DNA of 46,422 nucleotides from contig CALWRD010000120.1 of the NCBI GenBank assembly GCA_944383875.1, forward strand, positions 1 to 46,422. Reading direction: 5' to 3'. This stretch comes from an uncultured Clostridia bacterium. GTDB taxonomy: Bacteria; Bacillota; Clostridia; Lachnospirales; CAG-274. The translations under genes and the position numbers were made by a program. The notes under the pieces were generated by a model that was not told where the DNA came from, searched no databases, and saw only the letters and a list, made by a program, of their open reading frames with translations. Positions 4,617 through 46,422 of this stretch are shown one piece after another; position 1 is the first letter of the stretch; the number at the start of each line of letters is the position of its first letter.

Positions 4617-4874
4617 TTGGTGGAAAGAAATCTTCGCAAGACCAGAATCGGTAAGGTTGTCAGCAACAAGATAGATAAGACTATCGTAGTTGCTGTTGAG
4701 AATAATGTAAGACACCCATTGTATAAGAAGATCGTTAAGACTACCTATAAGCTTAAGGCTCACGATGAGAACAATGAGTGCCAGATCGGTGACCGTGTAA
4801 AAGTTATGGAAACAAGACCTTTGTCAAAGGATAAGAGATGGAGACTTGTATCTATAGTTGAAAAGGTTAAGTAA
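4617..4874 (+). CDS. rpsQ: 30S ribosomal protein S17
   Basis: 85 aa; [22 protein letters not shown]...HPLYKK. Start is TTG 4617 or GTG 4620, after GGAAGGAGG. Confidence 0.92.
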
Positions 4875-17468: not shown

Positions 17469-19358
17469 ATGAAGAACCCCATTGTAAGTAAAATGGTTCT
17501 TCCTCAGTGTGTTACCGATATTTTAAATGCGGTGCCTGAGGTTATTGTACCTGAAAGCAGAGAGCACCTTTTTGATCTCTCATACGGCGGAAAGGGCAAT
17601 AAGACCTTTGATGTAAACTTTGACGTAAACGGAAAATCTGTTCGTGAAGCTTATGTAACAAGATGTAAGAACGGTATGGTTATCAATTTTGATGACAAGG
17701 CAATGCGCCGCCGTGACCCTAACTCTATGGTAATTGCGGATCATCTTCCTACAGATAAACCAACCTATGAGGAAAGATTCGGTATACCTTTTGACAGTGT
17801 ACGTGAGGAAACTTTTGAATGGCTTAAGGAGAGAGAATCACTTATAGCATTACCTTTCTATGCAGGTAACGAGGATCTTAAGCTCGGTTATCCATGTATT
17901 GCCATAGTACCTACCAACGCTGCATGCTTTGCGGCCATGCTTGCGGATATGCAGTGCTTTATTCCGGCAGATAAGGTACCTAACTTCTTTAAGCCAAAGG
18001 GAATTATATATGTGGCTCCACCTTTCCGTCACACTCATTTTGAAGGAAAGCAGGTTGTAGTACATAACCGTATGTACGATATGCAGGAAGTATTCAGCTA
18101 CAACCTCTATCCCGGTCCATCAGCCAAGAAGGGTGTTTACAGTATCCTTCTTAATATAGGCGAGCAGGAAAAGTGGGTAACTCTCCATGCATCAACAGTA
18201 AAGATCATTACTCCATATGAGTTGGAGCTTACTATTATGCACGAGGGTGCTTCAGGCGGCGGTAAGTCTGAGATGACTGAGCCTTTCCACAGAGAGCCTG
18301 ACGGTCGTCTGCTTCTTGCCACAAACACAATTACAGGTGAAAAGACTCTTGTAAATATTGCGGATACATCCGAGCTTCATCCTGTAACCGATGATATGGC
18401 ACTTGCTCATCCAAGTCTTCAGAACGACAGCAAGAAGCTTGTTGTTGCTGATGCTGAAAACGGTTGGTTCCTTAGGGTAAACCATATTGAGCATTACGGT
18501 ACAGAGCCTGAAACAGAGGCAGCTACCATCCATCCAAAGCAGCCTCTTATCTTCCTTAATATGCAGGCAGTTCCCGATTCTACCTGCCTCATTTGGGAGC
18601 ATATAGAGGATGAACCGGGTGTACCTTGCCCTAATCCAAGACTTATTATGTCAAGAAGACTTAAGAATAATATCGTAAGCGGTGCTGTTGAGGTTGATGT
18701 AAGAAGTTTCGGTGTTCGTACTCCACCTACAACCAAGGATAACCCTAACTACGGTATTATAGGTCTTTTCCATGTACTTCCACCTGCACTTGCATGGCTT
18801 TGGAGACTGGTTGCACCACGTGGTTTTGCTAATCCTTCTATTATAGACAACTCAGGCAATGCCCTTAAGAGTGAAGGCGTTGGTTCTTACTGGCCATTTG
18901 CTACAGGTAAGAAGGTTGATCAGGCTAATCTGCTCCTTGACCAGATCTTAAGCACACCTTCTACAAGATACATCCTTATACCTAACCAGTACATCGGCTG
19001 CTATAAGGTAGGTTTTGCAGGTCAGTGGGCTACAAGAGAGTACCTTTCAAGAAGGGGCGGCGCTAAGTTCAGACGTGAAATGCTTGATGAGGCAAGATGC
19101 CCAATCCTTGGTTACGCTCTTAAGTCTATGAAGATTGACGGAAACGACGTACCTAAGGGTCTTTTACAGGTAAATGAGCAGGAGAGAGTAGGCAACGAAG
19201 GTTACGATGCAGGCGCTAAAATCCTTACTGATTTCTTTAAGGAGCAGCTTGTTCAGTTCGATACTTCTTCGCTTGAGCCTCTTGGTCATCAGATTATTCA
19301 GGCTTGCCTTGACGATGCTTCTGTTCAGGATTACTACGATCTCATTCCTAAGCTTTGA
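17469..19358 (+). CDS. Large uncharacterized protein with an HprK/PEPCK-style P-loop (probably the DUF4914 family)
   Basis: 629 aa with a strong AAGGAGG RBS and a central MHEGASGGGKSEMTEP P-loop. Monocistronic, between its own promoter and the liv promoter. The family name is from memory only. Confidence 0.8.
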   Translation: MKNPIVSKMVLPQCVTDILNAVPEVIVPESREHLFDLSYGGKGNKTFDVNFDVNGKSVREAYVTRCKNGMVINFDDKAMRRRDPNSMVIADHLPTDKPTYEERFGIPFDSVREETFEWLKERESLIALPFYAGNEDLKLGYPCIAIVPTNAACFAAMLADMQCFIPADKVPNFFKPKGIIYVAPPFRHTHFEGKQVVVHNRMYDMQEVFSYNLYPGPSAKKGVYSILLNIGEQEKWVTLHASTVKIITPYELELTIMHEGASGGGKSEMTEPFHREPDGRLLLATNTITGEKTLVNIADTSELHPVTDDMALAHPSLQNDSKKLVVADAENGWFLRVNHIEHYGTEPETEAATIHPKQPLIFLNMQAVPDSTCLIWEHIEDEPGVPCPNPRLIMSRRLKNNIVSGAVEVDVRSFGVRTPPTTKDNPNYGIIGLFHVLPPALAWLWRLVAPRGFANPSIIDNSGNALKSEGVGSYWPFATGKKVDQANLLLDQILSTPSTRYILIPNQYIGCYKVGFAGQWATREYLSRRGGAKFRREMLDEARCPILGYALKSMKIDGNDVPKGLLQVNEQERVGNEGYDAGAKILTDFFKEQLVQFDTSSLEPLGHQIIQACLDDASVQDYYDLIPKL

Positions 19359-25619: not shown

Positions 25620-26678
25620 TTATTCATCAACACTGACAAGGTTATAGGTACGGCTTCCGAGTCCGATTTGTTCGGCGTGTTCCAAAGTGTGAAGACCGTT
25701 GCGGGATTCGATTCTTTCAACAAGGGAAGCCCCATCCCCATCCTGTTGTTCATATACAAGGTCGATACAAGCCTGATCCAATGCAACAGGGTCCGTTGAA
25801 GCCAGTATACCTATGTCGTGCATATCAGGTTCGGCAGGATTGCCGTCACAGTCACAGTCCACCGACAGACGGTTCATTACATTGACATATGCTATGTTTT
25901 CACCGTTATTTAAGTAATCGGATACGGACTTGCCTGCCTCAGCCATGGACTCAAGAAATGGATCCTGCTCGCCGCCCCATGGGTCGGTGCTGCTCTCCCC
26001 TGCGCTGTGGATAAGGCACTTACCCTCTGTTGAGCCGAGTCCGATGGAAATATTCTTTATAGCGCCGCCGAAGCCTGCCATTGCATGACCTTTAAAGTGG
26101 GAAAGCACTAAGTAGGAGTCATAATCGGCAAAGTGAGCACCCACAAGGTTTTCTTTAAGCTGAGTGCCGCCTTCAACGGGCAGGCTCATTGAACCATCTT
26201 CATCTAAGATTCGGAAGTCGGCTATTGCCGTAAATCCGTGGTCTTCCGCTACCTGATAGTGCATGGCTGTTTCCGCACGGGAACCGCCGTAGGCTGTGTT
26301 GCACTCCACTATGGTGCCGTCAACGGACTGTACCAGATCTTTAATAAGGTCGGGATCAAGGTAATTGCTGGCAGGAGGTTCTCCCGTGGAGAGCTTAACC
26401 GCAACATTTCCCTCGGGTGTCCAGTTGAGTGCACCATATACTGCCATTAATCCTTCGGGACTTATGTCGGTGGTCATATATACAACGGGAGAAGCGGTAT
26501 CTGCCGCATCTTTATTTTCCGTACTCTCTTGTGAAGAGGTGGTGTTTTCGGTTGTTTCCGTTGTACTTTCGGTAGTTGTGGTGGTTTCGGGAATCAGAAT
26601 ATCCCCTCCACAGCCCGATAAAAGCGTGGATGTAACTGCAAGTGATGTAACAAGTGAAATGATCCTGTTATTAATCAT
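25620..26678 (-). CDS. DUF362-like lipoprotein with Thr/Ser/Glu-rich linker
   Basis: 352 aa; signal peptide plus lipobox (LLSGCGG), then the linker TTTTTESTTETTENTTSSQEST. SHFKGHAMAGFGGAIKNISIG and GILASTDPVALDQACIDLV resemble DUF362 motifs (from memory). AAAGGAGG RBS. Confidence 0.75.
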   Translation of the reverse strand: MINNRIISLVTSLAVTSTLLSGCGGDILIPETTTTTESTTETTENTTSSQESTENKDAADTASPVVYMTTDISPEGLMAVYGALNWTPEGNVAVKLSTGEPPASNYLDPDLIKDLVQSVDGTIVECNTAYGGSRAETAMHYQVAEDHGFTAIADFRILDEDGSMSLPVEGGTQLKENLVGAHFADYDSYLVLSHFKGHAMAGFGGAIKNISIGLGSTEGKCLIHSAGESSTDPWGGEQDPFLESMAEAGKSVSDYLNNGENIAYVNVMNRLSVDCDCDGNPAEPDMHDIGILASTDPVALDQACIDLVYEQQDGDGASLVERIESRNGLHTLEHAEQIGLGSRTYNLVSVDE

Positions 26679-29775: not shown

Positions 29776-31392
29776 TTATTTCTTTTTCGTTCCCTGCGCA
29801 TAGGTAATAATAACAGCTAGCCTCTTTCTTGTCAAGTCTGTAAAGGCTGTTACAGGGTCAAATTTTTTCTGCATTGATGTGATTTGATCGTTATAACTGC
29901 TGTCGGAACTTTCTTTTGTATAGTCGGTAACATAATACAGCTGTATAATATCGCCATCGGAAAGCTTAATACTGCCCATACTTGCTTCTGGCTCCCTGCC
30001 GTTTATGCTGTATTTCCAGCCGCTGTTTACACCCATATCAAACTCGTACAGAAGATGGGAACTGTCCTCGCCGATAGCGGAAATATATATGCTTTCTTCA
30101 TCACCTGTGGCGGCATATGTCAGTCCTTGATTGTCAAGGGCAGCTTTCACTGCCGTCCATACGCTTGAGCCTGCGTATACGCTTACCGTGTCAGTAAAAT
30201 CAAAGGCGTAACAGGGTTCTTCCAGTGTTGATACGGTTACGCTTATGCTGATGCGCTTGGTGCTGCTTCCGCCTCCTCCGCCCGGACGATTTGAGACGGC
30301 TTCGGTGGTTGTTTCGGTTGAAGCGGCGGTTTCGGCGGTTGGCTTGGCAGAAGTTGTTTCGGTAATTGTTATTTGTGCCGAGGTACTGATTTCTGTTGTA
30401 CTTTCGGCAGTGCTTTCTTCGGCAGCGAAAGAGGTACTTTCGGTGGTACTTTCTATGGCAGCGGTTGTGCTTTCGGTAGAGGGAAGGTCAATGCTGCCTC
30501 CACCGAAACGGAATATATAAACTTTGTTTTCTCCGTTAAGCTGCCTTTTTACGGACACCATGGCTCTGAATGCCTGTTCCGTTGAAAGTGAATTGTGCCG
30601 TGTGTTTGTAAAGCCGAAGGTATAGTCCTCATTCATAAAGGTAAGCAAACCTTCAAGAGAATTTCCGGATTTGATAAAACGGCTGTCGGTGAATATGTCC
30701 ACACCTGCCCCACACAGGGCATTTATAGCAACCGATGTGGAATTGGAATTTTCGACTCCGTAGCGATTGCAGAATGCGCCGCTTTCTCCCTGCATTTGTG
30801 CAAGTGCCTCAATGCCTTTTTCCACGGCTTCGGTGCATTGCTCATATGGGGAAAGAGCCAATATTGCAAGGGAGGTGTTGTCCGTGTCGATTACCGCAGC
30901 TGCTCCAAAGCCTCCAAGTTCATTTTGAGAGGCGAGAATACCGTCAATGAGCTGCTGCCTTGCCAACGGACGGTCATAGCCGTAGGAATCCAGTGCAAGC
31001 AGACCGAATATAAGCTGATTAATTGACATACCATGTATATTTTCACAGATGTAGTCGACAAGCTCCTCATCCCTTATACCTACAGCACTTTTCATTATCA
31101 GTATACGCTCGGCATCGGTTACAAGGCGTATTTCATCATCAATGTTTTCAACATAGCTGCGCATTTCTTCACTTATACAGCCGTCTGCTGCCATATCCGG
31201 CACATACCAGTCACTTATTACTCCTTTTGCATATACTTCGCTTACAACTGCCTCAACTGCCGAAGCGGTTGTAGAAATATCGTGGGATGCTGCATATAAC
31301 ACGTCAGTACCTATACTTGCAAAGGAAAGACTGTTGCCGGAAATTAGTATTGCTGCCGCAAGCAGCAGGGAAATCCATCGCTTAAGCTGCAT
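29776..31392 (-). CDS. Secreted two-domain protein: prenyltransferase-like alpha/alpha-toroid repeats, Thr/Ser/Glu linker, C-terminal DUF4430 (transcobalamin-like) domain
   Basis: 538 aa. Signal peptide MQLKRWISLLLAAAILISGNSLSFA. QNELGGFG and QGESGAFC repeats. Linker STESTTAAIESTTESTS...GGGGGS. C-terminal SGWKYSINGREPEASMGSIKLSDGDIIQLYY. Overlaps the upstream gene by 11 nt. Confidence 0.8.
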   Translation of the reverse strand: MQLKRWISLLLAAAILISGNSLSFASIGTDVLYAASHDISTTASAVEAVVSEVYAKGVISDWYVPDMAADGCISEEMRSYVENIDDEIRLVTDAERILIMKSAVGIRDEELVDYICENIHGMSINQLIFGLLALDSYGYDRPLARQQLIDGILASQNELGGFGAAAVIDTDNTSLAILALSPYEQCTEAVEKGIEALAQMQGESGAFCNRYGVENSNSTSVAINALCGAGVDIFTDSRFIKSGNSLEGLLTFMNEDYTFGFTNTRHNSLSTEQAFRAMVSVKRQLNGENKVYIFRFGGGSIDLPSTESTTAAIESTTESTSFAAEESTAESTTEISTSAQITITETTSAKPTAETAASTETTTEAVSNRPGGGGGSSTKRISISVTVSTLEEPCYAFDFTDTVSVYAGSSVWTAVKAALDNQGLTYAATGDEESIYISAIGEDSSHLLYEFDMGVNSGWKYSINGREPEASMGSIKLSDGDIIQLYYVTDYTKESSDSSYNDQITSMQKKFDPVTAFTDLTRKRLAVIITYAQGTKKK

Positions 31393-32080
31393 TGTTAAGG
31401 GTCCTGTTCAATATCCATGCGGCATCATTGGCAGTGAGGATACCGCTTCTGTCGTAGTCAGACACATCAAGGTCAATGGTGATTGAGTCGGCAAAACGAG
31501 TGTACTGCAATACAGCTGCGGCATCGTCTGCGGTAACTTTCCCGTCACTGTTGCTGTCTCCTCTTAATACATCGGATGTCATATCACAGCTTATACGGCT
31601 GTCAGCCAAAGCACGCATAGCCTCGAAATCCACAGGATCATATATAACTGCGTCCCAGTTTTCATCAAAATCACTTACATATTCCCACAGTATAAACATA
31701 CCGTCATATACCGTATATTCATTTGCGGCGGTTATGAGGGTGTTATAGCTGTCTACATAGTACAACCAACCGCTGGATGGACCGGTAAGTCCGCTGCCCT
31801 GACCGAAAAGAGTTTCATAATAGCTCAGTCCGCTGCCGGATACTACACTGTCAGTATTGTTTTCTATGGCATAGGTCACGTCGGATACGGTTGTACCTGC
31901 CGGTACGGTCAGCCTGCTGCAATTATAGCTTGTTATGGGCTGTGTCTTGTCGGCGGTGTTCCCCCCTCTTGCCATAAAGTAGACGGTTACGGTATCACCT
32001 TCTGCCGCAAATATGCTTAAGGGGCTTATTGCAGCCAGCATAAATACACAAAGCAGAAGGGATAAAATTTTGTTCTTCAT
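31382..32080 (-). CDS. Secreted DUF4430 (transcobalamin-like) domain protein with C-terminal type I dockerin
   Basis: 232 aa. Signal peptide MKNKILSLLLCVFMLAAISPLSIFA. DUF4430-like SSGWLYYVDSYNTLITAANEYTVYDGMFILWEY. Dockerin duplicated Ca-binding loops GDSNSDGKVTADDAAAVL and DYDRSGILTANDAAWIL. AAAGGAG RBS. Confidence 0.8.
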   Translation of the reverse strand: MKNKILSLLLCVFMLAAISPLSIFAAEGDTVTVYFMARGGNTADKTQPITSYNCSRLTVPAGTTVSDVTYAIENNTDSVVSGSGLSYYETLFGQGSGLTGPSSGWLYYVDSYNTLITAANEYTVYDGMFILWEYVSDFDENWDAVIYDPVDFEAMRALADSRISCDMTSDVLRGDSNSDGKVTADDAAAVLQYTRFADSITIDLDVSDYDRSGILTANDAAWILNRTLNNAA

Positions 32081-32143: not shown

Positions 32144-32189
32144 ACTGCACCTACGGTGCCCTTGCCTTACTTCGGAAAACAAGTATTAA

Positions 32190-32300
32190 AAATACAACCT
32201 TAGGGTGCGTATCTGACTATTTATCACAGTGACCGGTTCGTACAGGATTTTCACCTGTTTCCGCTTATCGCACCATTACAGTGCTGACCTTAAGGCACGT
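32190..32300 (-). promoter_or_regulatory. Cobalamin (B12) riboswitch aptamer
   Basis: Minus-strand read: GTGCCTTAAGGTCAGCACTGTAATGGTGCGATAAGCGGAAACAGGTGAAAATCCTGTACGAACCGGTCACTGTGATAAATAGTCAGATACGCACCCTAAGGT. It contains GGAAAC-GGTGAAAATCC, CCGGTCACTGT and the B12-box-like AGTCAGATAC..GCACC, in the canonical order. The CCTTAAGG/CCCTAAGG P1 helix closes it. Confidence 0.8.
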
Positions 32301-32316
32301 ATTAAGTTATTCTATA

Positions 32317-40716: not shown

Positions 40717-40973
40717 ATGAGCAAATTTGAAAAGATCAAGAAAGAGTAAGAAACTATCCAAGAGATTATACTTATACAGAAGCCAGAAGTTTACTAATTC
40801 AAATGGGATTTGAAGAATATAATAAGGGTAAAACTTCGGGGTCTAGGGTTAAGTTTTATAGGAGTAGGGACAAAAAAGTAATATTACTCCATAAACCACA
40901 TCCGGGAGATATAATGAAAATAGGAACAGTGAGAGATTTAGTTGATTGTTTGAAGGAAATAGGTGAACTTTAA
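40717..40973 (+). pseudogene. hicA: hicA-family toxin gene disrupted by a frameshift
   Basis: ATG 40717 gives MSKFEKIKKE, then TAA at 40747. The rest of the HicA/YcfA domain continues in the -1 frame to TAA 40971-73: ...RNYPRDYTYTEARSLLIQMGFEEYNKGKTSGSRVKFYRSRDKKVILLHKPHPGDIMKIGTVRDLVDCLKEIGEL. The shift must lie within 40731-40746, an A-rich run. Confidence 0.7.
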
Positions 40974-41297
40974 ATGAAAAACAATGTATTGGAATATAAA
41001 GGTTATCATACAAAAATTGAATATAGTGCAGAAGAAATGTTGTTAAGGGGAAAAATAGATGGTATCGATGATTTAGTAAATTTTGAAAGTGATAGTGCAG
41101 AGAAAATAGTAGAAGAGTTTCATTTGGCTGTTGATGATTATTTGGAATTTTGTAAAGAGGTAGGAAAAGAACCGGATAAGGAGTATAGCGGAACATTTAA
41201 TGTACGAATTAAACCTGAGTTGCACAGAAAACTCTCACTACTTGCTTCAAAAAACGGAGATACATTAAATGCAACTGTTGCGAAGGTAATTAAATGA
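40974..41297 (+). CDS. hicB: HicB-family antitoxin
   Basis: 107 aa; MKNNVLEYKGYHTKIEYSAEEMLLRGKIDGIDDLVNFESDS...GTFNVRIKPELHRKLSLLASKNGDTLNATV (C-terminal RHH-like). The start abuts the hicA stop (TAAATG). Confidence 0.85.
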   Translation: MKNNVLEYKGYHTKIEYSAEEMLLRGKIDGIDDLVNFESDSAEKIVEEFHLAVDDYLEFCKEVGKEPDKEYSGTFNVRIKPELHRKLSLLASKNGDTLNATVAKVIK

Positions 41298-41346
41298 TGG
41301 AGTTCGAGTAACAATAACAAGACACGTTAGTTTTGAACCAAAGGAT

Positions 41347-41627: not shown

Positions 41628-42140
41628 TTACTTGCCGCTGCTGCCCAGCTTGCCGTCGCCTCTGACCGAAGGATAGTCGGCAAGGGCGGCAGGGTCTATT
41701 ACTTCTATACTAAGTTCATTGTGTACATTGTGTACTATGCCTTGAAAAAGTGCCTTTGTATAGGGGTATACTGTCATGGTATCCTCTATAAGGGACTTAA
41801 AGGCGGGAGGCAGAGTGTTTATGTCTGCCTTGAGGATAACAAGGGGCTTATTTGTACTGTTGGTAGTGGCAAGGAACCACTCGCCGCGATAGCTTGAGTC
41901 AATTACTCCGGCGCTGTACTTAATTCCCTTGCTGCCGCTTGAACCCCTTTCCTGTATCTGGACATAGTAGTTAAGAGGAATTACACTTGCTATGCCTGTG
42001 GGTACAAGTCTTGTTTCGTGAGGAGGTATCAGGAAGTAATCCTCGTCAAAGCAGGGATATATGTCAAATCCTGCATTCCAAGCTTCCCTTTGGGGAATTA
42101 CCGCACCTTCTTTCAATTTTGCAAATCTGATTTTATCCAT
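41628..42140 (-). CDS. dut: dUTP diphosphatase (trimeric dUTPase family)
   Basis: 170 aa from ATG 42140 (AAGGAG 6 nt upstream): MDKIRFAKL...NAGFDIY, ERGSSGSKG, GVIDSSYRGEW, VRGDGKLGSSG. These match dUTPase motifs I, II, III and V. The tracked start at 42203 overlaps nrdG. Confidence 0.85.
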   Translation of the reverse strand: MDKIRFAKLKEGAVIPQREAWNAGFDIYPCFDEDYFLIPPHETRLVPTGIASVIPLNYYVQIQERGSSGSKGIKYSAGVIDSSYRGEWFLATTNSTNKPLVILKADINTLPPAFKSLIEDTMTVYPYTKALFQGIVHNVHNELSIEVIDPAALADYPSVRGDGKLGSSGK

Positions 42141-42150
42141 ATTGTGCTCC

Positions 42151-42645
42151 TTATTCAGCGTCATAGAGTACCGCTTCCCCTCGTTGGAGGGTGGCAGGTA
42201 CATTTATAATACGCTGATTGCTGCTTCCTCGCCAATGCAGCTGTGTATTTTTCAGTTCTTCCACAAACCTGCCGTCAACCAGTACATCAATGTATTTCAT
42301 AACAGGAAGATTGCTTATCTCTTCCCAAAGATAGCCGGTATAGAGCCAAATGGTTTTTGTCGGATACTCCGACTTGTATCTTTTGGCAAGTTCGGTAACC
42401 TTATCTCTGTTAAGGGGGTGAAGAGGGTCTCCGCCGCTGAAGGTAAGACCGGATACATAGGGCTTACCTGCGGACTTGAACAATTCTTCCTCGGCATCAT
42501 CATCAAAGGGTATGCCGCCGTTTATATCCCAAGTGATAGGATTTTGGCAATTTTCACAGTGGTGTGTGCAGCCTGCCACCCACAGCACCGTCCTGAGTCC
42601 TTCACCGTTTAACATATCGTCGTGTGTTATATTATGGTATCTCAT
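42151..42645 (-). CDS. nrdG: Anaerobic ribonucleoside-triphosphate reductase activating protein (radical SAM)
   Basis: 164 aa from ATG 42645: MRYHNITHDDMLNGEGLRTVLWVAGCTHHCENCQNP (CxxxCxxC). The tracked start at 42699 overlaps the nrdD 3' end. Confidence 0.92.
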   Translation of the reverse strand: MRYHNITHDDMLNGEGLRTVLWVAGCTHHCENCQNPITWDINGGIPFDDDAEEELFKSAGKPYVSGLTFSGGDPLHPLNRDKVTELAKRYKSEYPTKTIWLYTGYLWEEISNLPVMKYIDVLVDGRFVEELKNTQLHWRGSSNQRIINVPATLQRGEAVLYDAE

Positions 42646-42655
42646 TTTTTGCACC

Positions 42656-44824
42656 TTACATACTCTTTCTGTCGGCGATTTCTGCCATCTTGGCATCATT
42701 GAGCCTTGTGTCGCCGTTTACTCTGGAATAGCTAAGATAGCCGTTCATACGCTCAATTTTGGTCAGATTTTTGCTTCCGCATTTAGGACATACGTCCATA
42801 TCAAGCTCCTGATGTCCGCAGTCGTCGCAGAAGGAAAGGGACAGGTTTACACCTTCATAAAATCCCATATCCATAGCCCTGTATATCAATGTTTTGATAG
42901 CCTCGGTGTTATAGTCTATAGGATATTTTACGTACTGTATTTTACCGCCGTTCATCAGGTTCCAGAATCTCTTTTCCAGATCCTGCTTCTGAATAGGTGT
43001 TATGTCCTCCGTAACGTGGCAGTGGAAGCTGTTGGAAACATATTCCCTGTCGGATACGTGTTCAATTATGCCGTATTTCTTCCTGAACTGCTTAACCTGC
43101 AAGCCGCAGAGGTTTTCGGCAGGTGTACCGTAGAGAGCGTACAGGATGCCGTCCTCTTTCTTGTATTGGTTTACCTTGTCATTGATATATTCCATTACCT
43201 CAAGTGCAAATTGACCGTCCTCAACAAGACTCTTGCCGTTGTACAGCTCCTGAAGCTCATTAAGTGCGGTTATGCCGAAGCTGACAGTACATGGCTTAAG
43301 CAGAGGCTTGATCTTGTCATGGGGCTTAAGATGTCCGCCGTAAAAACCGCCCTCACAGTAGGCAACAGGGTTAGTGGAGGCTCTCATTTCTCCGAGATAA
43401 TCAATGGTTTTTTTGTGTATATTTCTGATCATTTCAAGGTAGTAATCAAGTACTTCGTAGAAGTCACGGCTTTCAGCCCTTGCCTTAGCCAGTATCATAG
43501 GAAGGTGGAGACTGATTGCGCCCAAGTTGAAACGACCTACCACTACAGGCTTGTCATTTTCGTCCGCAGGCTCCATACCGCCTCTTTCAAACCACAGTGA
43601 AAGGAAGGCACGGCAGCCCATAGGACTGATTACTACGCCGTACTTTTTGTAAGCTTCTGCAACATAGCTGTCGCCGGTAAGGCTGAGCCAGTCGGGATAC
43701 ATCGTCTTTGCGGAGCAGCGAAGTCCCGCCTCAAATACGTCATGAAGCTCTCCGCCTTCACCGTGAAGATTTTCATCGTAAAGGAATACCAGTTTTGGAA
43801 AAAGTGTAGGCTTTTTGTTGCCTTCCTTACCTTGACCGTTACGGTGCACATCAAGGGCGGTGATGGACGCCATTTTGCCGAAACGATCCTTTGCAAGTCC
43901 CAGAGTCATTGTGATAAATGGATAATCGCCTCTGGAGGAACCTACGGAATTAAGCTTATATTCAAGTCCCTGGAAACCCTGCTCAAACTCACGTTTTACT
44001 TTCTTAACCGCACATTTGTCAATATACTTTTCATCCTCAGGGGTAAGGTTGTCTTTACCGCCTATGGTAAGGACATAATCCTTTATCTCGTTGTAGTATT
44101 TGTCATAGCTCTTCTGTGCATAAGGAGAGAGTATCTTATCTATTTCCGGTACGGTGAAACCACCGTACTGCTGACTGGCGGTTGAAAGCACCACATCACC
44201 TATGACATCAAAGGCAACACAGAGGGTCTTAGGTTCATTATACCAGAGATTACCCATTTCAAAGCCGCCCTTAAGCACCGACGCCATATCAAAAAGACAG
44301 CAGTTCATGGTATCACGCCTTGCGGACATATCGTGTATATAAATGTAACCGTCACGACAGGCCTGTTTTTCATCGGTAGTTAAGAAAAACTTTTGATAAA
44401 GCTCCTTGTTAAGCTGATTGTATATAAGGCTGCGTTTGGTTGCCACCAGTGCCGAGTCGGTATTGGAGTTTTCTTTGTCGCCTATGTACATAATAGACTG
44501 TGCTTTCTGATATACATCGTCAAGCATATGGACGAAGTCTTTTTTGTAGTTGCGATAGTCCTTATAGCTTTTTGCAACTTTAGGCTCGATATCTTCCAAA
44601 GCGCTTTCAACCAAGTTGTGCATGGTCTGAATAGGTATCTTTTCCATATTTTCGCTTTCAATTCTACTTGTAATATGGTTTATTATCGCATCATATTCCT
44701 CTTTTGAAAAGGTATACATAACCCTGCTTGCGGATTTGGTTATTGCCTTTATGATTTTGCTTGCGTCAAATGCCTCAAGCGTACCGTCCTTTTTAATAAT
44801 AAATGATTTTTTTGCTTCTGTCAT
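42656..44824 (-). CDS. nrdD: Anaerobic ribonucleoside-triphosphate reductase (class III, glycyl radical)
   Basis: 722 aa. N-terminal ATP-cone (IKKDGTLEAFDASKIIKAI). C-terminal zinc ribbon CDDCGHQ...CPKCGS, followed by the glycyl-radical motif RMNGYLS. Confidence 0.95.
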   Translation of the reverse strand: MTEAKKSFIIKKDGTLEAFDASKIIKAITKSASRVMYTFSKEEYDAIINHITSRIESENMEKIPIQTMHNLVESALEDIEPKVAKSYKDYRNYKKDFVHMLDDVYQKAQSIMYIGDKENSNTDSALVATKRSLIYNQLNKELYQKFFLTTDEKQACRDGYIYIHDMSARRDTMNCCLFDMASVLKGGFEMGNLWYNEPKTLCVAFDVIGDVVLSTASQQYGGFTVPEIDKILSPYAQKSYDKYYNEIKDYVLTIGGKDNLTPEDEKYIDKCAVKKVKREFEQGFQGLEYKLNSVGSSRGDYPFITMTLGLAKDRFGKMASITALDVHRNGQGKEGNKKPTLFPKLVFLYDENLHGEGGELHDVFEAGLRCSAKTMYPDWLSLTGDSYVAEAYKKYGVVISPMGCRAFLSLWFERGGMEPADENDKPVVVGRFNLGAISLHLPMILAKARAESRDFYEVLDYYLEMIRNIHKKTIDYLGEMRASTNPVAYCEGGFYGGHLKPHDKIKPLLKPCTVSFGITALNELQELYNGKSLVEDGQFALEVMEYINDKVNQYKKEDGILYALYGTPAENLCGLQVKQFRKKYGIIEHVSDREYVSNSFHCHVTEDITPIQKQDLEKRFWNLMNGGKIQYVKYPIDYNTEAIKTLIYRAMDMGFYEGVNLSLSFCDDCGHQELDMDVCPKCGSKNLTKIERMNGYLSYSRVNGDTRLNDAKMAEIADRKSM

Positions 44825-44939
44825 TGGTCTGACCCCCTTTTACATTCTCTTCCGGGAACTGTCTTGTTATATATGAAGAAACAGCTCTTTTGCTTGATAT
44901 TAAAAACAAATAAATACAGAATTATGGGTGGTTTAATCA

Positions 44940-44988
44940 CCACTACATTTCGTGTAAGATATATTTTAGCACCACAATATATAGTGTG
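44940..44988. promoter_or_regulatory. Two NrdR boxes
   Basis: CCACTACATTTCGTGT (44940-55) and CCACAATATATAGTGT (44973-88) match the palindromic acaCwAtATaTwGtgt-type NrdR operator. They are 33 bp apart and overlap the nrdD promoter. Confidence 0.7.
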
Positions 44989-44992
44989 TCAA
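44963..44992 (-). promoter_or_regulatory. Candidate nrdD promoter
   Basis: Minus strand: TTGACA (44992-87), 18 nt, TAAAAT (44968-63). Confidence 0.5.
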
Positions 44993-44998
44993 TGCCTT

Positions 44999-45099
44999 TT
45001 ATCCACAAAATTATCCACAGTGCCGCAACAATGCTTATTTACTGATAAAAAAATTTTTTACCTGCTTTTATCCACATATTAACACACATTTTATCCACA
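44999..45099 (+). promoter_or_regulatory. Cluster of four perfect DnaA boxes (TTATCCACA), all in the same orientation
   Basis: Exact 9-mers at 44999-45007, 45011-45019, 45068-45076 and 45091-45099, in the nrdD / DUF3794 divergent intergenic region. Confidence 0.6.
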
Positions 45100-45201
45100 C
45101 ATTACAAAAATTATATAGGCATTTTTTTGTGCATATTCCCATTGCCTATCCAATATAATCTATTGTAGAGGATTGTATTCGGTTTAAAGGAGGATATTAA
45201 T

Positions 45202-46422
45202 ATGGCAGTTAATAAGGATAATATTATTTTTGACAGGAGGGTTGGCAGTGCAGCATCTCAAGTTGTGTCGGAAGGTGAAATAACGGCCTTTGAGGGTAAG
45301 CCTGAGGTGGAAAATCTGCTCAGGACAGACGGAAGCTTTACTATGGAAGATATTCAGTGTTCAAATAACAGAGTAAGCTTTAGCGGCGTACTGTATATTA
45401 ACGGTATGTATCTTTCCGGAGGAGAAATTAAGGGAGTTCACTGCTTTTCAACCGAGCTGCCCATTAGCGATTACATAAATGTTGACGGAGCGGCTGAGGG
45501 AATGTATACATATTTTACATCTAATGTAAGCAGTCTTACCTGCCGGGTTATAAACGGACACAAGCTTACTTACAGGGCAGTTATAGATGTTGAGGTAACT
45601 GTATATGAAACGGCTCAGTGCCGATATGTGTGTTCGGTTGATGATATACCTGTAAATCAGCAGCGTTTTAACCGGATAAGCGTGGAGTGTGTGCCTGTAC
45701 GTGTACATGACAGCATCACCTTAAGGGAAAGCCTTAATTTGCCTATGGGTAAGCCTAATGTTGAAGAGATAATCTGTCGTGATGTCAGGTTGAGCTCAAT
45801 GGATAGCAAGACCGGTGAAAACAGTGTAAGGCTTTCGGGGGATTTAAATGTATCAATACTGTATAAAGGCGAGGGTGAGAGTAACCCAATGGAACTTTTT
45901 GAGGAGAGTATTCCTTTTAAAGGTGAGTTGGAGGCGAAGGGGCTGACGCCGGATATGCTCTGCGACGTAAAGGAACAGCTTAAGGCGGTCAGCGTCAATG
46001 TGCAGCCTGATGAAGACGGAGAAATGCGAATGCTTGATGTGGATGCGGTGATAGAGGCGGACATAATCGGGAGGCAGACAAGGGAAATAGATGTGCTGGA
46101 GGATATGTATGTGCTCAATAAGTCTGTTAAGTTTGACTTTGAGGAAATGTGCGGATGCGTGTGTGCGGCGAGAAACACGGGGCAGTGCTCGGTAAAAAAT
46201 GTGGTCACCCTTGATGAGAAGGCACCGAATATGCTCCAAATATATAAGGCTGACGGAAAGACTTACGTGGATTATGTGCAGATTAATGACGGGAGCATTG
46301 ATATTGAAGGTGCGGTCGGAGTTAATATCATATATGTAACGGGCAACGATGAGATACCGGTATATTGTTTCAGCAGTATGCTGCCATTTAAGCACAGTGC
46401 ACAGGCGGCAGGTGCCGGAGAG
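45202..46422 (+). CDS. DUF3794-domain protein (SipL/SafA-like sporulation protein candidate), 3' end outside window
   Basis: Absent from the ORF track because no stop is reached. ATG 45202 follows AAAGGAGG. I translated all 407 codons to the window end without a stop (MAVNKDNIIFDRRVGSAASQVVSEGEITAFEGKPEVENLLRTDGSF...). The repetitive beta-rich pattern resembles DUF3794 (from memory). Confidence 0.75.
   Translation, partial: MAVNKDNIIFDRRVGSAASQVVSEGEITAFEGKPEVENLLRTDGSFTMEDIQCSNNRVSFSGVLYINGMYLSGGEIKGVHCFSTELPISDYINVDGAAEGMYTYFTSNVSSLTCRVINGHKLTYRAVIDVEVTVYETAQCRYVCSVDDIPVNQQRFNRISVECVPVRVHDSITLRESLNLPMGKPNVEEIICRDVRLSSMDSKTGENSVRLSGDLNVSILYKGEGESNPMELFEESIPFKGELEAKGLTPDMLCDVKEQLKAVSVNVQPDEDGEMRMLDVDAVIEADIIGRQTREIDVLEDMYVLNKSVKFDFEEMCGCVCAARNTGQCSVKNVVTLDEKAPNMLQIYKADGKTYVDYVQINDGSIDIEGAVGVNIIYVTGNDEIPVYCFSSMLPFKHSAQAAGAGE

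Follow-up and report, generated by a model that had tools for sequence, protein, structure and literature searches.

The nrdD-nrdG-dut operon and its promoter

The 46,422-bp stretch of DNA analysed here (the window) carries, on its minus strand, an nrdD-nrdG-dut operon (41628-44824) encoding a class III ribonucleotide reductase (RNR), its activase and a dUTPase. Pfam hits identify nrdD (42656-44824; ATP-cone and NRDD), nrdG (ORF limits 42151-42699; Fer4_12/radical SAM) and dut (ORF limits 41628-42203; dUTPase), a shorter start being preferred by gene callers for the last two. Divergent from the operon, on the plus strand, lies a SipL/SPOCS gene (45202-46422; formerly DUF3794; Pfam SipL, 1.9e-41) that runs off the window; full-length copies of it in loci L081-L091 encode 520 amino acids with a LysM domain. 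The identities given to these genes in the first-pass annotation, an nrdD-nrdG-dut operon facing a DUF3794 gene, are confirmed by these hits. Those relatives whose contigs extend that far share the order nrdD-nrdG-(optional extra gene)-dut. The species occurs in chicken-gut metagenomes, and in one metatranscriptome, at a depth of about 4 and with DNA carry-over possible, contigs were found over nrdD and SipL and none over the region between them. Elsewhere the window holds a large ribosomal-protein operon, relA, dtd, hisS, aspS, an amino-acid ABC transporter and other housekeeping genes. Its sole Rfam match is a cobalamin riboswitch at 32187-32307, and the same search returned no RNA family in the nrdD leader or in the intergenic region.

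A promoter scan placed the nrdD promoter at 44963-44992 on the minus strand, with the -35 hexamer TTGACA at 44992-44987, an 18-nt spacer and the -10 hexamer TAAAAT at 44968-44963, preceded by a TG extension. It matches 11 of 12 consensus positions in addition to the TG, hardly any variation is seen in its columns when upstream regions from related lineages are aligned (alignment A1), and transcription is predicted to start near 44956. Two NrdR boxes had been proposed at this promoter, and both are there on the minus strand. NrdR box 1 (ACACTATATATTGTGG, 44972-44987) lies between the -35 and -10 hexamers and is nearly invariant in the 10 sequences of alignment A1; NrdR box 2 (ACACGAAATGTAGTGG, 44940-44955) lies over the predicted start site, at about +1 to +16, and is conserved in the same alignment. 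Both were recognised by reading the sequence as 16-bp palindromes with a 16-bp spacer at an RNR promoter. This is the layout of an NrdR operator, for which two 16-bp palindromic boxes 14-17 bp (or 24-27 bp) apart are required, a 16-bp spacer being the commonest (PMC12051234).

A cluster of DnaA boxes upstream of the nrdD promoter

An exact-match scan found the DnaA box TTATCCACA four times immediately upstream of this promoter, always on the plus strand, at 44999-45007, 45011-45019, 45068-45076 and 45091-45099. The window contains only one other perfect copy, at 26006 on the minus strand, within a DUF362 ORF. The claim that four perfect, co-oriented boxes starting at 44999, 45011, 45068 and 45091 exceed chance is borne out, given that dinucleotide-preserving shuffles predict 0.56 perfect boxes per window, that none of 100 shuffles had five or more, and that a Poisson estimate for at least four perfect boxes in some 101-bp window is about 4e-9.

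The two boxes nearest to the promoter are P1 (44999-45007; TTATCCACA on the plus strand and TGTGGATAA in the direction of nrdD), which starts 15 nt before the first T of the -35 hexamer and covers about -51 to -43 relative to the predicted start site, and P2 (45011-45019), at about -63 to -55. Together they form a co-oriented double box with a 3-bp spacer, TTATCCACAaaaTTATCCACA (44999-45019), of the kind defined for DnaA as two co-oriented boxes 2-3 bp apart (PMC11317965). The double box ends 6 nt upstream of the -35 hexamer (gap 44993-44998); the nearest box had been correctly placed upstream of the hexamer, and only the gap, given as 7 nt, needs amendment. A cluster of consensus boxes 6 nt from a sigma-70-type promoter with 11 of 12 consensus positions is what is seen at DnaA-regulated promoters, where consensus boxes stand at or next to the promoter.

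The distal boxes are D1 (45068-45076), which starts at -84 relative to the -35 hexamer and covers about -120 to -112 relative to the predicted start site, and D3 (45091-45099), for which the corresponding positions are -107 and about -143 to -135. They had been described as a pair, and both are indeed perfect. A repeat finder, however, recognised in 45065-45088 a 79% copy of the proximal double box (direct-repeat family D2), and the apparent pair is therefore a triple with a decayed middle box, TAACACACA (45080-45088, plus strand; 3 mismatches; about -132 to -124 from the predicted start site). The distal group thus is made up of three boxes in tandem, spaced 11-12 bp, and lies about 57 bp farther from the promoter than the proximal pair, and all five box positions read TGTGGATAA in the direction of nrdD transcription. 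Between the groups lies a spacer element (45033-45060) composed of a partly conserved motif, GCTTATTTACTGAT on the plus strand, followed by an A-run/T-run tract, ATAAAAAAATTTTTTA (45045-45060), the latter being the A/T-rich stretch noted earlier between the pairs. The spacer element could be intrinsically bent DNA, or an accessory factor might bind there. A CodY-like site within it was considered by eye and rejected, the matches being poor and inconsistent between lineages.

Several perfect DnaA boxes beside an A/T-rich stretch are also what part, or a remnant, of a chromosomal replication origin might look like, and an origin-related element was among the roles first suggested for the cluster. 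The 46-kb window, however, contains no dnaA, dnaN or rpmH. Its GC skew is positive except over stretches whose larger ORFs are minus-strand, and the cumulative skew has no turning point; the proposed check on the distance of the boxes from dnaA and from a GC-skew switch thus found neither within the 46,422 bp. A search of both strands from 44900 to 45201 detected no DnaA-trio (TA[G/A]) repeat of at least three units, A/T-only runs reach 16 nt at most, and the genomic context differs between lineages, the array being always at the nrdD promoter. Because there is no dnaA gene, GC-skew switch or DnaA-trio motif nearby, an origin is not supported, and we regard it as exceedingly improbable.

Conservation of the array in related lineages

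Scanning GTDB with NrdD gave 80 loci whose identity to it is 73-90%, and further contigs were fetched for NrdD clusters picked by identity. The comparison below covers nine lineages in which NrdD is at least 89% identical and the upstream neighbours are almost all different. Within the species itself (13 contigs, NrdD 100%, SipL upstream), the intergenic region is invariant but for a single SNP and a change of 1 nt within the A/T tract. L091 (NrdD 98%), which also has SipL upstream and hence the same gene order, keeps all four perfect boxes. The array is likewise kept in L092/L093 (90%; an Fe-ADH gene upstream), L095/L097 (90%; a small gene after purB-purA), L098 (89%) and L102/L103 (90%), both with DctP upstream, L099 (89%; a DUF2225 protein), L100 (89%; a chorismate-binding enzyme), where four boxes match the full 9-mer consensus, and L002 (89%; a histidine kinase with a terminator), which is the loosest case. 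Conservation in relatives had been named as a check on the boxes, and in these nine lineages the array has passed it. In L001 and L002, the closest GTDB loci, the region upstream of nrdD is homologous and contains DnaA-like boxes; the upstream neighbour of L001 is probably DctP, since its upstream region matches that of L102. The array, being kept through changes of upstream neighbour, travels with nrdD. The pattern formed by the proximal box, N6 and TTGACAYACTATAT is present in the JGI-derived loci L095 and L099 and gave no match in a metagenome contig collection, which evidently excludes these two loci.

These changes of neighbour bear on whether the boxes instead serve the divergent SipL gene, linking spore-coat morphogenesis to replication status, as the first-pass annotation had hinted. 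DnaA links sporulation to replication in Bacillus subtilis through sda, so a coupling of this kind has a known counterpart. Moreover, 31 nt separate the end of D3 from a candidate sporulation-sigma promoter, GCATATT-N14-AATATAAT (45131-45159), which is conserved in L091 and matches what we take to be the sigma-E consensus. SipL nevertheless adjoins the array only in this species and L091, and was found beside nrdD in none of the 80 GTDB loci. The seven other lineages keep the array with unrelated upstream genes and have no SipL in the fetched 3-5 kb flanks, and the geometry of the array is locked to the nrdD -35 hexamer. A scan of metagenome contigs with the full-length SipL protein yielded no confirmed relatives. 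Control of SipL by these boxes is accordingly very unlikely.

The conservation of the boxes goes beyond that of neutral positions. At 158 four-fold degenerate nrdD sites with an invariant amino acid, pairwise identity is only 0.41-0.59 (0.56 between the window and L091), which indicates that the lineages are old and these sites near saturation; majority identity there is 0.66. In alignment A1, the box columns have a majority identity of 0.89 (0.84-0.96 per box; means of 0.96 for P1 and 0.90 for P2), as against 0.73 for the non-box columns from the first box up to the -35 hexamer (Mann-Whitney p = 2e-6, box versus non-box columns). The promoter and NrdR boxes reach 0.83, and the sequence upstream of the array 0.46. 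Across nine lineages, therefore, the boxes stand at 0.89 versus 0.66 for four-fold sites, and their positions are fixed within 1 bp or displaced by about 21 bp. The A-run/T-run tract between the box groups is found in every lineage, and several columns of the spacer element (T, C, G, AGC) are at least 85% conserved.

The way in which the boxes vary is informative about the protein that may bind them. Tandem direct repeats at 11-12 bp upstream of a -35 hexamer are the classic layout of OmpR-family activators, and the head-to-tail repeats seen here, at just this spacing and directly upstream of the hexamer, might be bound by an OmpR/PhoB-family response regulator instead of DnaA, for instance a ResD/SrrA-like oxygen or redox regulator. 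Oxygen or redox control is common for class III reductases, that of Escherichia coli being under oxygen control through FNR. In addition, the ResD half-site, presumably TTTGTGAAT, resembles tttTGTGGAT, and L092 carries a ResD-like tttTGTGAATAA. The pattern in 41 aligned boxes nevertheless points to DnaA: conservation reaches 98-100% at positions 1, 7, 8 and 9 of TTATCCACA and is lowest at positions 3-5, so that the invariant T1 and CACA core, with a variable centre, are as DnaA predicts. The relaxed DnaA consensus is TTWTNCACA, and the variation observed fits it. Position 5 of TGTGGATAA is G in 36 of 41 boxes, whereas a ResD-like site would want A, and four boxes in the window and four in L100 match the full 9-mer DnaA consensus. 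A response regulator as the main ligand thus seems distinctly unlikely.

Geometry of the array

Box positions were counted from the T that opens the -35 hexamer. All nine lineages have a box with 0-2 mismatches at the P1 position, shifted by 1 nt in L100, and the P2 position at -27 is kept in eight of nine (including -28 in L100), the exception being L002, where the box is displaced to -30. The proximal starts are -15/-27 in seven of the nine lineages, -16/-28 in L100 and -15/-30 in L002, and the 3-bp proximal spacer is kept in eight. Further upstream, seven of nine lineages have a box with 0-1 mismatch at -83 to -85 (the D1 position), relatives carry a box with 0-2 mismatches at -95/-96, where the middle distal box of the window has decayed, and the D3 position is occupied at -106/-107 in five of nine. 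The distance between the two groups, start to start, is 56-58 bp and constant except in L100 (78 bp).

Two lineages depart from this arrangement in a regular manner. L099 has its distal triple at -104, -116 and -127, a 21-bp shift that also affects D3, and carries one more box at -83. The triple of L100 stands at -106, -118 and -129, so that the box at -106 is the proximal member of a shifted triple. The shifts of 21-22 bp equal two helical turns, and the rotational phase between the box groups is therefore kept. Indels are otherwise common in these regions, since among the lineages compared the -35 hexamer and the start codon are anywhere from 117 to 168 nt apart. L002, with an inverted distal pair and a degenerate proximal one, shows that the architecture is not strictly required.

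This register is the evidence against which a function in DnaA titration has to be weighed. With 4-6 boxes of 0-1 mismatch in 100-130 bp, the loci of this clade qualify as intergenic clusters of the DBC/datA type, and the array could be mainly a site that titrates or inactivates DnaA and so restrains initiation, any effect on nrdD being incidental. Such a number of good boxes in so short a region resembles the six DBCs of B. subtilis, and datA and DARS of E. coli likewise pair DnaA boxes with a bend site. In Firmicutes the large ribosomal-protein operon is usually fairly near oriC, and the presence of this operon in the window would fit an oriC-proximal location, where DBCs work best. A titration site, however, has no need for a fixed distance from a promoter, yet the register to the -35 hexamer holds within 1 bp in nine lineages, and indels in the array come in steps of 21-22 bp. 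The neighbourhood is reshuffled in almost every lineage, so that an oriC-proximal position is not obviously conserved, and the box number is modest. Titration as the main function therefore appears unlikely to us; it may be a side effect of an nrdD operator.

Limits of distribution

The array has a sharp boundary. In the next clade out (NrdD 84-86%: L003-L008, L104-L107 and L110), the NrdR-box promoter is present and there is no DnaA-box cluster, the loci having one perfect box or none. A TGTGCAAAA about 26 nt before the -35 hexamer in this clade was considered as a weak box and left uncounted, its 2-3 mismatches being within chance. Loci with 73-79% NrdD identity also have no cluster: no 400-bp upstream window in them holds more than two boxes at no more than one mismatch, and only 1.8% of background 400-bp windows in these loci have at least two. 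Being absent at both the 84-86% and the 73-79% loci, the array is clade-specific and dispensable for nrdD regulation in general.

A model for DnaA control of nrdD-nrdG-dut

The comparison across lineages assigns the boxes to nrdD, neither to the divergent SipL gene nor to an origin. We consider it reasonably likely, from the sequence and its conservation, that the cluster is a DnaA operator array of the sigma-A-type nrdD-nrdG-dut promoter, modulating transcription on top of NrdR repression. DnaA-dependent control of this operon had been put forward in the first-pass annotation, and the comparative evidence strongly favours it: the array follows nrdD, and its distance from the -35 hexamer varies within 1 bp while the four-fold sites are near saturation. 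There is also a direct precedent in E. coli (PMC11317965).

In the mechanism that we envisage, DnaA would bind the proximal double box cooperatively, and the distal group, together with the bendable A/T tract, would stabilise the DnaA complex, with the helical phase kept across lineages. Standing just upstream of the -35 hexamer, this complex could modulate the recruitment of RNA polymerase. The sign of its effect is only weakly indicated: activation or anti-repression seems somewhat more likely than repression, because the boxes leave the core promoter free for polymerase and NrdR. NrdR, with dATP and ATP, would repress through its two boxes overlapping the core promoter, so that transcription of nrdD-nrdG-dut would integrate initiator status, through DnaA, and dNTP status, through NrdR. 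The array probably ties the synthesis of DNA precursors to replication, as in E. coli.

A more elaborate version of this operator can be conceived, in which the array is a phase-locked, two-part DnaA assembly site, with the triple and the double box about 5.4 or 7.4 helical turns apart around a bent A-run/T-run tract and looped by DnaA. The loop would do two jobs at once. It would switch on the only anaerobic operon for dNTP supply and dUTP clearance together with initiation potential, and it would serve as a sink for DnaA or as a DnaA-remodelling site, with feedback on initiation. We know of no Hda, SeqA or datA in Clostridia. This combined role is a doubtful one in our estimation.

DnaA control of RNR has been studied almost only at E. 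coli nrdAB, and a DnaA peak at nrdD in that species was reported only in 2024. The literature searched yielded no account of DnaA boxes at the RNR genes of Clostridia. An operator of the kind proposed here would mean that a strictly anaerobic clade of Firmicutes has independently placed a DnaA double box by the -35 hexamer of its class III reductase/dUTPase operon, in addition to NrdR. This supports the view that the wiring of the initiator to dNTP supply would be a recurrent solution and not an enterobacterial peculiarity. Moreover, the clean comparative footprint, with fixed positions and indels of about 21 bp, offers a testable design for DnaA as a transcription factor. For genome annotation, clusters of DnaA boxes away from dnaA should not be labelled as origins.

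Comparison with known systems

In E. coli, datA and DARS combine a cluster of DnaA boxes with a DNA-bending site, as the nrdD array appears to do, and modulate the DnaA pool. They depend on IHF or Fis and on the hydrolysis or exchange chemistry of DnaA-ATP, and we know of no description of such chemistry in Firmicutes. Unlike the nrdD array, datA and DARS have no fixed relation to a promoter.

To our knowledge, B. subtilis has no nrdD, and none of its four DBCs other than yydA-yycS and ywcI-vpr lies at an RNR gene. Its six DBCs regulate neighbouring genes, and deletion of all six leads to early initiation (PMC3245932). These DBCs resemble the present array in belonging to Firmicutes and in being intergenic clusters of consensus boxes, several of which regulate the adjacent gene; together they restrain initiation (PMC3245932, PMC4447404). 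They differ in that yydA-yycS and ywcI-vpr (PMC3245932) are not at an RNR gene.

Closer parallels are found at the RNR genes of E. coli. In a DnaA ChIP-seq study of this species (2024), peaks were seen upstream of both nrdA and nrdD, and co-oriented double boxes with 2-3 bp between them were preferred (PMC11317965). The nrdDG locus of E. coli shares with the present one the nrdD-nrdG target, a double box oriented TGTGGATAA toward nrdD and NrdR boxes in the same intergenic region. The E. coli double box, TGTGGATAAccTGTTCTTAA, nonetheless belongs to the leader, 15-34 nt ahead of the start codon and downstream of the NrdR boxes, whereas in our array it is upstream of the -35 hexamer; of the two E. 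coli boxes, only one matches well. Because its double box is in the leader, the E. coli nrdD architecture is different and independent in origin.

At nrdAB of E. coli, DnaA activates or represses from boxes next to the -35 hexamer (PMC8203912), and the title of Sun et al. (1994), as cited there, refers to an upstream AT-rich element needed for cell-cycle regulation. Inspection of the MG1655 sequence showed a double box, TTATCCACAaagTTATGCACT, that abuts the -35 hexamer TTGCAA. Both loci are RNR operons in which two co-oriented boxes, 3 bp apart, stand right before the -35 hexamer, NrdR boxes overlap the core promoter and continue beyond it, and an AT-rich element lies upstream. They differ in that nrdAB is class Ia and proteobacterial, whereas the operon described here is class III (nrdDG) plus dut. 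The nrdAB boxes are oriented opposite to transcription and abut the -35 hexamer, while here they end 6 nt before it, and nrdAB has no distal triple-box group. The E. coli nrdAB and Clostridia arrays are certainly independent in origin. As a putative DnaA operator, the nrdD array adds to the known control of RNR promoters by DnaA boxes, and its architecture is unusually clear.

Upstream regions of nrdD in related genomes

In the next clade outside the array-bearing lineages (L003-L008, L104-L107 and L110, with NrdD proteins 84-86% identical to that of the window), the NrdR-box promoter is present and the DnaA array is absent from the nrdD upstream regions. In most of these loci, though not in L005, a different AT-rich region lies upstream of nrdD; it contains the motif ...GTCAAG(T/A)AAAAA... 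and, some 26 nt upstream of the -35 hexamer, TTTGTGCAAAAA. The element TGTGCAAAA found in this clade differs from the DnaA box at two positions and could be either a weak DnaA box or the site of another factor.

A different arrangement was found in L002, a relative whose NrdD is 89% identical. Its distal pair of DnaA boxes (around 4772-4792) has the orientation opposite to that in all other lineages, reading TTATCCACAaaaATATCCACA in the nrdD direction, and the A/T tract and promoter are retained. The pattern looks like the outcome of either a small inversion or the independent re-creation of the boxes.

Organisation of the operon and its surroundings

The end of nrdD and the longest nrdG ORF overlap by 44 nt (42656-42699, minus strand). 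Given that the start called on other contigs alternates between proteins of 181 and 164 aa, the downstream ATG is probably the true nrdG start. For dut, the longest ORF encodes 191 aa and gene callers give 170 aa. In several of the relatives L092-L100, nrdG and dut are separated by an additional gene encoding 158-190 aa, which is YcxB-like in L095 and L099 and gives no Pfam match in L092 and L100; this gene is missing from the window species (41628-42699). The nrdD-nrdG gap is 300-600 bp in L092, L093 and the 85% clade.

Directly downstream of dut, strains of the same species differ (window 40849-41300; L083, L084, L086). The window and L081 have a HicB-family antitoxin gene with a small ORF, L084 and L089 a longer HicB variant, and L083 and L086 a gene for a very large beta-helix protein of 1243-1716 aa.

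Elsewhere in the window, a cobalamin riboswitch (32187-32307, minus strand; Rfam RF00174, 37.7 bits) sits upstream of two minus-strand genes; the one at 31382-32080 encodes a protein containing a dockerin, and the one at 29776-31392 a protein of 538 aa that has a DUF4430 domain. For an organism that bears cohesin/dockerin, B12 control of such a gene pair is unusual. A 629-aa protein matching DUF4914 over its entire length (17469-19358, plus strand; 1040 bits) is encoded by a gene standing alone, with the ribosomal-protein/rpoA region on one side and an operon for a branched-chain amino-acid ABC transporter on the other.

A candidate promoter of the SipL gene

The SipL gene, the divergent neighbour of nrdD, is preceded by a candidate sporulation-sigma promoter, GCATATT-N14-AATATAAT (45131-45159, plus strand), followed by a ribosome-binding site. 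Four-fold sites are just 56% identical between the window and L091, yet L091 retains the two hexamer-like elements as well as the 14-nt spacer separating them. We take this candidate promoter to resemble the sigma-E-type consensus.
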